Positions 14,893 through 18,130 of a DNA stretch of 64,000 nt are shown here, piece by piece. The DNA comes from Nitrosopumilus sp. (GTDB lineage: Archaea; Thermoproteota; Nitrososphaeria; Nitrososphaerales; Nitrosopumilaceae). The notes under the pieces were generated by a model that was not told the origin of the DNA, did no database searches, and was given only the letters and a program-made list of their open reading frames with translations. The stretch's first letter is position 1; every line of letters begins with the position of its first letter. The stretch is taken from assembly GCA_965207075.1 (NCBI GenBank), contig CBDBLO010000002.1:416001-480000 (forward strand), in the 5' to 3' direction. The position numbers and the translations under genes are program-made.

Positions 14893-15552
14893 CTATCTCG
14901 TATATGCTTCCAGCCCAGTCTTTGTTGGAGTCCAGTTCTTTGGCTCAAATTTGCTTGGAAGTCTTGAAACCAGCCGGTCTGATTCTAACCCAATGTACAC
15001 CAGTCGCTCTATGATTGCATGTACTTCGCGTCCGGATACGTTTTGGAGCGGCCAGTTTGTAATTTCACTTTCTTTGTCTGTCGTATGACCATAGCGGTCT
15101 ACAAACCATTCAAGTGGTGTCCTGCCGTTGACGTGATATTCACAGATTGGTAATCTATTATATATGATTATATCATCAATTATCAGGACATGATGATTCT
15201 GACTGCTTGTGATATTTTTGGATGAGTCTTTTTTCTGATGGCCCCATCTTATGTTACGCGGCGAATTGGGAATGTTGTTTACGGGCATGCCTAAATCATG
15301 CCGCTTGCAGGTTTCCCATGACAAGTGAAGATCCGCCAACTCTTTGCCTATCTTTGAGAATGCCCAAAAGTCGGGTGCCATTGGAATGTGTGGAAGTTCC
15401 CGGGTGAGATTGTTTGCATACTTCTCTCGATATCCAGAATGGTGTAAGAGTCCATAGACGTAATAGAAAATATCTTCTTTAGTGACAGTATTGTCATTGT
15501 AATGTGTTCTATATTCTTCAAGAGCATAATCTGTAATGTTGTCTACCATCAT
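14893..15552 (-). CDS. Type ISP-like C-terminal specificity domain (separate ORF; frame stays open upstream to the AG tract)
   Basis: DNITD.AL, KEDIFYYVYGLLH..YR.KY.NNL..ELP.IP, G..LA.LH, Y.VNGRTPLEW..DRY motifs; ATG overlaps the TGA of the hidden frame. Confidence 0.85.
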   Translation of the reverse strand: MMVDNITDYALEEYRTHYNDNTVTKEDIFYYVYGLLHHSGYREKYANNLTRELPHIPMAPDFWAFSKIGKELADLHLSWETCKRHDLGMPVNNIPNSPRNIRWGHQKKDSSKNITSSQNHHVLIIDDIIIYNRLPICEYHVNGRTPLEWFVDRYGHTTDKESEITNWPLQNVSGREVHAIIERLVYIGLESDRLVSRLPSKFEPKNWTPTKTGLEAYTR

Positions 15553-15658
15553 TCTTTCATCACTTTCATCGGGAATACTTGACCGTGATGGACTACTTCC
15601 AAGTCTGGTATCGTGTCGGTTATGAATACCGAAAACTTGCCCTGTATCTTGTATGGTA

Positions 15659-18130
15659 TTAATATGCACAGATTGCGCCTGCTCTCTCTCTCTCTCTCTC
15701 TCTCTCTCTCTCTAAGTACGTAACTTTAGTCTTTAGTGGAAAAGCTTGTGACTGTGCAATCACGTGTAGATCTGGAGTGACATCAGTCATCAACCCGGAA
15801 AATTTCTCTCCGATTCCCTTGTCAGGCACAACAATCGCCAAGTTCTTCGAATCCGGTTTGGGAAATGACTTGAACGCAAATCCGGGCGTTTGATTAAATA
15901 TCTTGTCTAAATACAGATATTGTTTAAAAAATGGACGATAAAGAGCTATGCGGATTCTATTTTTTTGAAATTTTTGCTTACCATGTCTCTTAAGCAAAGT
16001 TGATAATTCCATACTCCACTTGGCTTTTTTAGGATTAATTATGGGATTGTCCAAATCTTGAGAATTACAATAACGTATGCAAGTTTTCATATTGTCAGAT
16101 AATGTTTTTTTAGATGAATTGTATGTCCACACATCACGTTTAGTTTTTACGCCATTTGCATATATTCTGAATATTGCACCCTCTTTTCCTTTTTTGGCAT
16201 CTTTGCTTCCTATAGGCAAATATTTGTTAAATTCAGGATTGCGTTGATCAACCCAATCATAATGTTCGTCAGGGATAATGGTTTGCCAATCTGATATGCC
16301 TTGGATCGATATAACATCTCTGATTATAGACAGTTTTTGCTCACGAGTATGATAGTCTCCAATGTCTTTGTAGTGGATTGTGCCCGGATGTGATTTTTTG
16401 TGATTTTTGACTAGAATGGTTATGGCAACGGGGGCTCTGGAACCTGAACCAAAGATCTTTCCGCCTTCCTTTTTTGATATTTCACCTTGCGTTCGTTGAT
16501 TGCCTCTCAAGTCAAACACCCAAACGTCCGTAAATTCCTCTTGTAAGCACGCCCGGACGCCTGCTCCTGCATCAGATCTTATAAAACTGCCGTTTGTAAC
16601 AAATCCGATGATGCCGGACTCACCTATTCTATCTGATGCCCAACGCATTGATTGAATGTAAGAATCGTAAAGAGTGTTTAATGCACCAATTTCCGGATTG
16701 ATCGTCTTGGTCTTTTCCAGATATGTGTATTCTATCCTATTATTCATCTCTGGATACTCAATATTTTGATTCTGTTCGTTGTAGTTGCTTTGGCCTGCAG
16801 AATATGGGGGATTGCCAACTATTACATGCAGATTTGACTTGCGCTGTTTCTGTCGTCTCTTTCGTATGTCTACAAATTCTTTGTCTATCTTTGTTTCTTC
16901 CTGTCTGTGATGTGTGCCCTCTAGATATCGCGGATCCATCATGAACGTATCTGTGTAGTTCATGCCTTCAAAAGGGGCATAATGATTTGCAATGGCATGT
17001 GTGGATTCCATGTTTACAGTGGCGATGTAAAACGCTAGCAGGAGAACCTCGTTTGCAAACATGTCGTCGCGGTACTTTTCAGTGAGTTTGTCACCTAACA
17101 TACCAGAATTTAATAATCTTGCCAAAAATGTTCCTGTTCCAGTGAACGGGTCTAGTATTTTCACTGAACGATTTGAAAAATCAGTTTTGAATTCTGTTTT
17201 TAACACATGTTGTACACTGTTAAGAATAAAATCTACGACTTCTATTGGTGTGTAGACGATTCCATCCCTTTTGGCACGCTTAGGATCGTATTTCTTGTAG
17301 AACGTCTCGTATATGTTACGTATGAAATGCTGTCTATTCTCATTGTCTGTTATGGATTCGGCCACGAGCTCGATCGAACTATAGTTGCTAAACTTGTCTG
17401 GTATGGCTAAGAGTTCACGTAGCCGTTCAAGCTCCTGTGCGATACTGTTATTTTTTGTAAAGTCATAGTCGTATATCATTGCAAATATTCTGGAGGTAAT
17501 GACATGCTGTATCAGCATGTCTATGATGCTATTCTGATCTATGGTGTCGTTGAGAATTTCTCTACATACAGCTGCAAATTTTTCTGATTCTGCAAGATAT
17601 CTCTCGTTTTTTCGTGCGCTCGACAATACCAGCTCTCTGGTGTCCTGTATTACGTCATCTAGGTTCTCCTCGAATTTCTTGAGTGCTTCGTCATACTTTG
17701 AAAATACATCAAAGGCTTCTTGCACCCGCTCATCTATTGACAGAAAGTTATCCTCGTCAGTAGCGCGGATCATCCTGACAAACGCGGGCAGCCCATACTT
17801 TTCAGAGTCGGGTGCAATGACAATGTGGCGCGGTCTTGGATTGCGTGTCATCTTGTCCTGTATGGTGGTCATTATCATAGAGTCGTCGTACTTGGTGGCT
17901 ACCAGACAGGGGGCGTTCTGGGATTCTGCAACGCTGCGCGCCGTGCCGCGCCAGTTTGACTCGGTCTCCATGTACAGTATGTTGTACTCGTCGTTGCGCG
18001 CTATAATCTCACAGTCTATCATGTCCGATGATGATATTGCGCCAATGTCTATCGGCTCGCGCATAGTGTGGTATCCTGCCCTTCCAAGGTGGCGTGAGAG
18101 TACGTCAAGACTGTCTGAAAACAACGTCAA
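15659..18130 (-). CDS. Type ISP/IIG-like adenine methyltransferase, truncated in the current phase
   Basis: GIVYTP.EVVDFI, ILDPFTGTGTF (motif I), IVGNPPY (motif IV), DLRGNQRT.GE.S.KEGGKIFGSGSR, YRPF.KQ; ends in ERERER. Confidence 0.92.
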   Translation of the reverse strand: MTLFSDSLDVLSRHLGRAGYHTMREPIDIGAISSSDMIDCEIIARNDEYNILYMETESNWRGTARSVAESQNAPCLVATKYDDSMIMTTIQDKMTRNPRPRHIVIAPDSEKYGLPAFVRMIRATDEDNFLSIDERVQEAFDVFSKYDEALKKFEENLDDVIQDTRELVLSSARKNERYLAESEKFAAVCREILNDTIDQNSIIDMLIQHVITSRIFAMIYDYDFTKNNSIAQELERLRELLAIPDKFSNYSSIELVAESITDNENRQHFIRNIYETFYKKYDPKRAKRDGIVYTPIEVVDFILNSVQHVLKTEFKTDFSNRSVKILDPFTGTGTFLARLLNSGMLGDKLTEKYRDDMFANEVLLLAFYIATVNMESTHAIANHYAPFEGMNYTDTFMMDPRYLEGTHHRQEETKIDKEFVDIRKRRQKQRKSNLHVIVGNPPYSAGQSNYNEQNQNIEYPEMNNRIEYTYLEKTKTINPEIGALNTLYDSYIQSMRWASDRIGESGIIGFVTNGSFIRSDAGAGVRACLQEEFTDVWVFDLRGNQRTQGEISKKEGGKIFGSGSRAPVAITILVKNHKKSHPGTIHYKDIGDYHTREQKLSIIRDVISIQGISDWQTIIPDEHYDWVDQRNPEFNKYLPIGSKDAKKGKEGAIFRIYANGVKTKRDVWTYNSSKKTLSDNMKTCIRYCNSQDLDNPIINPKKAKWSMELSTLLKRHGKQKFQKNRIRIALYRPFFKQYLYLDKIFNQTPGFAFKSFPKPDSKNLAIVVPDKGIGEKFSGLMTDVTPDLHVIAQSQAFPLKTKVTYLERERERERERAGAICAY
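15682..15713 (-). repeat. (AG)16 simple sequence repeat inside the methyltransferase gene
   Basis: 32 nt of CT on the + strand. Confidence 0.97.

Follow-up and report, generated by a model that had tools for sequence, protein, structure and literature searches.

A repeat tract and a dual-coded segment in the target recognition domain of a Type ISP-related methyltransferase gene from Nitrosopumilus: a probable three-state switch

What is the role of a long dinucleotide tract that lies within the specificity region of a DNA methyltransferase gene and cuts its reading frame short? The question is raised by a locus in a 64,000-nucleotide stretch of a Nitrosopumilus sp. genome (contig CBDBLO010000002.1; the whole stretch is called the window here), in which the target recognition domain (TRD) of a Type ISP-related methyltransferase is interrupted by an (AG)16 tract and by a second, diverged copy of a piece of the same domain. 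The original prediction, made from the letters of the window, read this arrangement as a three-state switch between an inactive form and two alternative specificities. It is reported here that the locus is probably a contingency switch inside the TRD of a two-gene relative of the Type ISP enzymes, in which the length of the repeat picks one of three products. The results support a three-output switch in which selection maintains two of the outputs, and we infer what sets these two apart from the nature of the duplicated piece.

The tract, its reading frames and the duplicated segment

The methyltransferase open reading frame (ORF) lies on the minus strand, as do all features described in this section; in its current reading, it covers positions 15659–18130 and encodes 823 amino acids (aa). 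Pfam matches identify an ISP_coupler domain (PF22240, E 2.7e-12), an N6_Mtase domain (PF02384, E 3.7e-11) and positions 1–152 of the TRD family Type_ISP_C (PF18135). Positions 167–329 of the same family are found in a separate ORF of 219 aa (14893–15552), which encodes the remaining TRD core together with the guide subdomain and was matched by phmmer to 7lo5, 5ffj and 4xqk. The Type_ISP_C domain is interrupted by the (AG)16 tract (15682–15713), which acts as the frame selector in the reading proposed below, and by the second copy of the duplicated piece, termed segment 2. The first copy, segment 1, is located upstream of the tract (15729–15853), corresponds to Type_ISP_C positions 110–150 and carries the loop motif PDLHVIAQSQ.

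The methyltransferase ORF passes through the tract and stops at 15659–15661, 7 codons beyond it, so that the window as assembled, with 16 repeat units (n=16), encodes a truncated product. The frame that opens at 15680 gives segment 2 as a peptide of 43 residues (15552–15680; Type_ISP_C positions 111–152; loop motif PDLEVVHHGQ), which ends at a TGA at 15549–15551. Segments 1 and 2, of 41 and 43 residues, respectively, share about 50% identity and match the same region of the profile, which bears out the view that segment 2 is a diverged duplicate of segment 1. The TGA of segment 2 shares bases with the ATG (15552) of the C-terminal ORF in the four letters ATGA at 15549–15552. When the same DNA is read in the frame of the C-terminal ORF (15553–15681), it contains no stop between the tract and the ATG and gives a hydrophilic linker, which would be used at n=14 or 17. 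Counted on the minus strand (p mod 3), the frame is 1 for the methyltransferase, 2 for segment 2 and 0 for the C-terminal ORF, and hence a tract of 15 or 18 units leads into segment 2, while 14 or 17 units lead into the C-terminal frame. The tract, ORF and frame coordinates of the original prediction, its stop/start overlap, its arithmetic of three states and its stop-free linker were all recovered on re-reading.

The tract stands out from its surroundings: no other AG run of the window reaches four units, and no other dinucleotide repeat reaches six units anywhere in the genome of 2,231,187 bases. A non-triplet repeat within coding sequence, placed at a site that tolerates changes of length, is one mark of a phase-variable locus, and (AG)16 has both properties.

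The N-terminal part was aligned by phmmer to LlaGI (5ffj, E 4.8e-40) and to LlaBIII (4xqk). The coupler, the gamma-class N6-adenine methyltransferase and the TRD are homologous to those of these two enzymes, which, however, carry an Mrr nuclease-helicase at the N-terminus of a single chain. In the window, a PLD nuclease and an SNF2 helicase are encoded by a separate ORF of 1101 aa (19389–22694; Pfam PLDc_2, SNF2-rel_dom and Helicase_C). In two relatives (L059 and L061), a homologue of this gene (61–65% identity) is the immediate upstream neighbour of the methyltransferase gene, and it is therefore likely, judging from gene order, that the PLD-SNF2 protein is the restriction and translocation partner of the methyltransferase. 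The description of the enzyme as Type ISP-like consequently holds for coupler, methyltransferase and TRD but not for the single polypeptide that defines Type ISP: the system is a split relative with its nuclease-helicase in a gene of its own. Some relatives that possess the same switch are single chains of 1290–1440 aa with Mrr_cat_2 and DEAD-helicase domains. In the L059 locus (genome G100, 9650–12881), the PLD-SNF2 gene is itself broken up into two ORFs that overlap (558 and 576 aa), and the methyltransferase is in the fused form.

Aligning the segments to the solved TRD structures showed which part of the domain is duplicated. Segment 1 aligns to the LlaGI residues corresponding to 1341–1374, the numbering being fixed by matching the aligned H, G and Q to H1368, G1372 and Q1373 (PMC4872093). 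By this alignment, the duplicated segment comprises the core beta-hairpin (1347–1358) and Loop VI (1365–1374) of LlaGI. Loop VI is one of three base-reading loops of the TRD and is assigned to position +3 of the target in both LlaGI and LlaBIII; in LlaGI, this position is read by H1368, G1372 and Q1373 (PMC4872093). In the window, Loop VI reads PDLH in segment 1, its H being aligned to H1368, and PDLE in segment 2. In all 26 pairs of segments collected from the loci described below, the Loop VI motif of slot 1 is unlike that of slot 2, with 1–4 of 8 positions alike. About six types of Loop VI recur, and a type that occupies the first slot at one locus may occupy the second slot elsewhere. This distribution is the pattern expected of alternative recognition cassettes, although it falls short of proving such a use.

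Conservation of the layout and selection on segment 2

When the last 424 residues of the N-terminal part served as the query of a protein search, many relatives were returned, the lengths of which group at about 820–870 and about 1025–1050 residues. Their C-terminal ends follow three readings: a stop a few residues past the peptide encoded by the repeat, continuation into a conserved second segment that is followed by a stop, or passage through a hydrophilic stretch into the C-terminal domain. At the DNA level, the gene was found in 23 of 201 genomes of the same family. The 30 loci fetched from these 201 genomes comprised ten with two segments, 19 with a single segment in frame with the C-terminal part and one that was too distant to be assigned to either class. 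Scanning named genomes with an alignment of segment 2 gave 24 loci, of which six were duplicates of those already collected, 14 were new two-segment loci, three had a single segment and one (L036) had the repeat and segment 2 without a segment 1 within the flank. The genomes of these matches are titled Nitrosopumilus, Nitrosopumilaceae, Cenarchaeum or Thaumarchaeota, except for one metagenome-assembled genome (MAG) of Dehalococcoidia, which has a single segment. Among 401 genomes sampled across the phylum, segment matches were present in 6 of 56 from this family and in the window genome, and in 0 of 344 from 60 other families. The same segment 2 alignment, used on metagenomes of the Joint Genome Institute (JGI), found two distant loci with 44% identity, which were not used.

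In total, 24 unique two-segment loci with 26 segment pairs were obtained, the window included. As these loci share segment 1, a repeat, segment 2, an offset and the C-terminal part of the TRD, the layout is not an accident of this genome, and its recurrence points to neither chance nor decay. The search for a segment-repeat-segment layout in related genomes that the original prediction had proposed therefore had a positive outcome.

The repeat itself differs greatly between loci. The tracts between the segments include (AG)5–26, (AC)6–12, G7 or G11, heptamers in 9–10 copies, octamers in 5–7 copies and an 11-mer in 88 copies; that is, a repeat with a unit of 1, 2, 7, 8 or 11 nucleotides (nt), never a multiple of 3, is present at the same site in 22 of the 24 loci. 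The only two loci that lack a repeat, L056 and L032, are both broken at the N-terminus, with 169 and 171 aa open before segment 1. L056 was considered as a locus locked in the segment 2 reading, which would have indicated that this reading is viable; this was rejected because the gene is broken upstream, like that of L032. The longest tract belongs to L048, from a Nitrosopumilus MAG, in which an 11-nt unit is repeated 88 times (968 nt, 1524–2491) between the segments and would give a very long repeat peptide in any open frame. At L020/L037 (829–1246), three segments stand in a row, separated by two repeats, (AG)5 and G7, and the −1 frame of the middle segment is also free of stops, which suggests that the module of segment and repeat can be added serially.

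The offset of segment 2 relative to the C-terminal part is −1 in 21 loci, +1 in L010 and 0 in L043 and L044. If the fused reading is called state A, the reading of segment 1 plus segment 2 state B and the truncated reading state C, then the DNA of ten loci is in state A, that of five in state B and that of nine, including the window, in state C, a spread that a freely slipping tract would give. Among 120 protein hits, at least 12 are in state B, 4 in state A and 9 in state C; these classes were assigned roughly by regular expressions, 26 of the 120 being without a motif match and many full-length proteins falling in the truncated class, and the rows cited here were read by eye. In all 24 loci, the C-terminal frame extends upstream into the tract without a stop and, therefore, each of them is one slippage event away from a fused gene. 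A direct instance of a change of repeat number was found in one MAG, G155, in which the loci L050 and L051 are the same at 4160 of 4184 positions (99.4%) and their sole indel is one 8-nt unit. Owing to this one-octamer difference, one of the copies is fused (state A) and its counterpart truncated (state C). With this change of one unit, and with the selection on segment 2 described next, the family shows neither an invariant tract nor a segment 2 that is decayed or absent in relatives, which together the original prediction had named as an outcome that would speak against it. The MAG G155 (loci L010, L031, L043–L046, L051 and L056–L058) has 11 matches to the gene, many of these copies with octamer repeats, and near-identical stretches among them suggest gene conversion or recent duplication. 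L010 forms, together with the proteins P0027 and P0035–P0037, a second sub-family with a +1 offset, an open +1 frame and no ATG at the start of the C-terminal part, for which an independent origin of the offset is possible.

Selection on segment 2 was assessed in both of its readings. In pairwise comparison, the copies of segment 2 differ at codon positions 1, 2 and 3 of their own frame by 0.246, 0.134 and 0.535, respectively. Nei-Gojobori counting over 23 unique segment 2 sequences gave a proportion of synonymous differences (pS) of 0.653 and of nonsynonymous differences (pN) of 0.210, a ratio of 0.32. Because pN/pS is 0.32 in this frame, compared with 1.69 in the −1 frame of the same DNA, the amino acid sequence of segment 2 is judged to be conserved in its own frame over deep divergence, under purifying selection. 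The frame leading to the C-terminal part also bears a mark of selection: it is free of stops in 23 of 26 segment 2 copies, but in just 2 of the 26 copies of segment 1 and in 1 of 22 controls with a single segment (mean of 2.7 stops). The three exceptions are the loci with another offset, namely L010, in which the +1 frame is open, and L043 and L044, with an offset of 0. The linker reading has a mean hydropathy of −1.17 against +0.34 for the segment 2 reading (n=21). The DNA of segment 2 is, on this pattern of substitutions and stops, dual-coded with both frames under selection. The third frame is richer in stops than in controls (5.65 versus 2.55–3.23 per copy); this was also considered as a sign of design and was discounted, as it is probably a by-product of the avoidance of T at third positions in a hydrophobic segment.

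Three predicted products and the rival explanations

The junction between segment 2 and the C-terminal part is as regular as the open frames. An ATG starts the C-terminal part in 23 of the 24 loci, and in all 21 loci with a −1 offset, the stop of segment 2 overlaps this start, as ATGA in 20 and as TGATG in one, the contexts having been read by eye. Single-segment relatives have no methionine at the corresponding position. Translational coupling in archaea and bacteria has been linked to stop/start overlaps (PMC6728339), and the two forms seen here are the same as those of gene pairs that undergo termination-reinitiation, with the difference that the overlap lies within an otherwise single gene and is reached in one of three classes of repeat length. 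Programmed −1 frameshifting from segment 2 into the C-terminal part was considered instead and rejected: the codon before the TGA varies (AAA, GAA, ACA, AGA or CCA) and no slippery heptamer is kept, whereas the ATG is kept.

The proposed mechanism builds on the anatomy of the locus, its conservation, the selection on both frames of segment 2 and the change of one repeat unit between near-identical copies. The system would consist of two genes, one for the PLD-SNF2 helicase-nuclease and one for the coupler, methyltransferase and TRD. A slippage-prone non-triplet repeat would be placed in a surface loop following the core hairpin and Loop VI of segment 1, and would be followed by a different copy of hairpin and loop that is one base out of frame with the remaining TRD; the length of the repeat would therefore select among three products. 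In state A (n=14 or 17 in the window), one full-length chain would be made in which segment 1 is used and the DNA of segment 2 is read as a disordered hydrophilic linker. In state B (n=15 or 18), the chain would consist of segment 1, the repeat peptide and segment 2 and would end on the TGA that overlaps the C-terminal ATG; we infer that the C-terminal part is then made separately through termination-reinitiation and that the two pieces assemble. In state C (n=16), termination a few codons past the tract would leave no coupled C-terminal part, and the enzyme would be off.

Structure prediction was applied to states A and B. The AlphaFold2 (AF2) model of a natural state A TRD (P0121 from L006; alignment of 37 rows) has a mean predicted local distance difference test (pLDDT) value of 72.9. 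In this model, segment 1 is folded (blocks of 74–85), residues 295–331, inside the linker, fall below 50 and the C-terminal part exceeds 78 except for two ten-residue blocks. A complex model of the state B N-terminal fragment of L039 (330 residues) with its own C-terminal ORF reached an interaction prediction score from aligned errors (ipSAE) of 0.90, the best control being 0.01; at least 96% of contacts are shared between the runs, and the partner has a pLDDT of at least 89. The mark passed by this model is reached by 58 of 80 solved complexes and by 2 of 110 mismatched pairs. Since the undivided single-chain domain has already been solved, the pass shows likeness to a known fold and not binding. 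The state B N-terminal fragment modelled alone by AF2 (alignment of ten rows) gave a mean pLDDT of 32.4 and is uninformative on which segment is used.

How the two selected products differ is a separate matter. The most economical idea is an altered base at one position of the target, because the duplicated piece holds Loop VI and the loops always differ, and two alternative specificities are plausible on these grounds. Given that the switch is real, it is possible, though somewhat doubtful, that the Loop VI employed in state B is the one from segment 2, whereby a different base would be read at one target position. As for the claim of an off state and two specificities, its conserved layout and its three frame states were borne out, all three being found among the loci; its two specificities are plausible, and the sole relevant model puts segment 1 at the interface.

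Several observations weigh against the proposed switch. The confident interface residues of the N-terminal fragment in the L039 complex model all lie at or below 263, so that segment 1 (223–258) is in and segment 2 (289–324) is out; this counts against the displacement of segment 1 by segment 2, but weakly, because the model cannot weigh two segments against each other. L010 has no ATG at its C-terminal part, yet its segment 2 looks conserved, and state B in the +1-offset family would accordingly be without a coupled C-terminal piece. The window copy is in the off state, with an insertion sequence (IS) parting the methyltransferase gene from its partner, and is possibly silent or in decay. Variation of the window tract could not be read from Logan contigs, where five runs from two studies contain the stretch and four were compared with 15671–15725 masked: the contigs of all four end on both sides of the tract, and such breaks are not evidence of variation. 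Finally, the loci are kin, many of them from one MAG, and their counts overstate the independent support.

Three other explanations were weighed. According to the simplest, the locus is a plain on/off phase-variable gene, in which the fused state A works, B and C are off, and segment 2 is the leftover of an old duplication that provides linker DNA. The frequency of state A, the commonest among the genome loci (10 of 24), would agree with this, as would the models, in which segment 1 belongs to the core in state A as well as in state B, and the +1-offset family, which has no start codon for a separate C-terminal part. A leftover, however, would not be expected to keep all family-conserved positions of hairpin and loop or to place its substitutions at third codon positions, with a pN/pS of 0.32 at a pS of 0.65, as opposed to 1.69 in the linker frame. 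Nor would it be expected to preserve the stop/start overlap, which every one of the 21 loci offset by −1 has as ATGA or TGATG, and state B products are frequent (at least 12 of 120 proteins). An on/off switch fails to account for the selection on segment 2 and is considered unlikely. Alternatively, one DNA state might yield all products, slippage of RNA polymerase or ribosome mixing A, B and C in each cell, so that the tract would set ratios rather than act as a heritable switch. Tracts as long as 26 dinucleotide units, ten heptamers or 88 copies of an 11-mer, and selection on both downstream frames, are compatible with such a mixture; but the repeat number differs between the near-identical copies L050 and L051 at the DNA level and changes their state, and genomes occur in all three DNA states, which makes this explanation very improbable.

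The remaining explanation concerns the window copy, which could be a broken, horizontally acquired gene in the course of being lost, the frameshift at the tract and the IS being decay rather than regulation. The copy has a GC content of 39–44% in a genome of 60% GC, and the other genomes sampled from the genus yielded no homologue (0 of 16 and 0 of 23); it is thus an acquired copy. It is now in the off frame and may be poorly expressed. These facts, the IS between the two genes of the system and the present truncation all favour loss. Against it, every frame that is needed is intact apart from the tract, namely the N-terminal part of 823 aa, segment 2, the stop-free linker and the C-terminal ORF of 219 aa; the C-terminal frame is open back into the tract, from which one slippage would restore the fused gene; and the same "break" is seen in 9 of 24 loci, as expected for a freely switching tract. 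Decay fails to account for anything beyond this one copy and is improbable to a similar degree as plain on/off switching. The contingency switch with three products is thus retained as the probable reading of the locus.

Repeat-driven phase variation of restriction-modification genes is textbook knowledge for bacterial pathogens. In phasevarions, which have been reported in such bacteria, repeat changes make the expression of Type III mod or Type I hsdM/hsdS methyltransferase genes variable (PMC5909438, PMC7383803); the likeness lies in a non-triplet repeat inside a methyltransferase or specificity ORF, and the differences are that selected products appear to come from two of the three frames here and that ammonia-oxidising archaea are the hosts. 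The nearest known parallel is the Type I system NgoAV of Neisseria gonorrhoeae, in which the loss of one G in the poly-G tract of hsdS1 fuses hsdS1 to hsdS2 and changes the recognition sequence (PMC9577141). There too, a repeat in a specificity gene chooses by frameshift between a truncated and a fused specificity protein, and the two forms differ in recognition (PMC9577141). NgoAV, however, swaps a half and a whole HsdS with whole TRDs, whereas a single recognition loop is duplicated here; one stretch of DNA is read in two frames, a third product arises via a stop/start overlap and the host is archaeal. The shufflons of hsdS likewise hold alternative specificity modules side by side in one locus, but switch by inversion or recombination of whole TRDs (PMC7394358) and not by reading frame. 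For LlaGI and LlaBIII, neither a repeat nor a duplicated loop nor a split TRD is described in the accessible part of the structural account (PMC4872093).

Literature searches brought up no account of repeat-driven phase variation for the restriction-modification genes of archaea, for Nitrosopumilus or for Type ISP enzymes, and a 2025 review, as far as its available text goes, names archaeal phylogenies merely as a future direction for the mapping of phase-variable loci (PMC11868660). This agrees with the original prediction, which did not recognise such a switch as described in archaea; NgoAV is a bacterial precedent, and repeat-driven switching of specificity is not wholly new in principle (PMC9577141). 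What is new is the combination of a dual-coded segment, a duplicated recognition loop and a stop/start overlap that is specific to one frame.

These switches are carried by a family of ammonia-oxidising archaea, many of the MAGs being labelled Cenarchaeum or Thaumarchaeota. Their design goes beyond on/off control: one DNA is selected in two frames, the duplicated part is a base-reading loop in solved relatives, and the stop/start overlap makes two genes of one in a single frame. Should the active states differ in specificity, the locus would be a compact natural means of re-aiming a restriction enzyme, a task that has been called an unaccomplished engineering challenge (PMC4872093), and it would also be a source of virus defence and methylome diversity in abundant, mostly uncultured marine archaea. 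A bolder and more doubtful proposal is that the repeat is a frame-addressed selector of two Loop VI cassettes, or of three with two repeats in L020, the outputs being off, a first specificity (fused, cassette 1) and a second specificity (split, cassette 2), with one DNA serving as either cassette or linker. If this were true, up to 11 such loci in one genome (G155) would provide a combinatorial, heritable repertoire of methylomes and restriction, and the system would be the first repeat-driven phase-variable epigenetic system described in archaea.

Genomic surroundings of the window copy

The IS that separates the methyltransferase gene from the PLD-SNF2 gene contains a transposase ORF on the minus strand (18376–19344; Pfam DDE_Tnp_1). 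The stretch between the two genes (18131–19389) is single-copy in the genome, and no such insert is present in the relatives L059 and L061. The neighbourhood as a whole is an island of mixed composition, with an AAA_21 ATPase, a DUF4276 protein and an IS3-type integrase. An AT-rich stretch (22889–27559; 35–42% GC) contains an ORF of 739 aa without a Pfam match, followed by the AAA_21 ATPase (25725–27080) and the DUF4276 gene (27077–27559), and looks, together with the restriction genes, like a defence island.

Other repeats are found in the window and elsewhere in the genome. Perfect tandem arrays surround the ORF of the IS3-type integrase (30902–31735) between 29790 and 33416, consisting of a 43-nt unit repeated three times (29864–29992) and of 33-nt units (30714–30841, 32086–32222 and 33196–33416), and G14 tracts are located at 32393–32406 and 32606–32619. 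Contig C2 of the window genome (G000) has 32 G or C homopolymers of at least 12 nt, for which a rough chance expectation, given the base composition, is one or two; the longest is C18 at C2:1842370. The same contig contains (GGCA)25 at C2:718728, (TGCC)11 at C2:1776998 and an 11-mer repeated five times at C2:1621130. These long homopolymers and short-unit repeats may be further contingency loci or may partly be effects of assembly. Short remnants that resemble the C-terminal part of the TRD and are interrupted by stops were also observed, at 30123–30245 of the window and, in the same genome, at C2:1952671–1952739 and C2:2149057–2149275.

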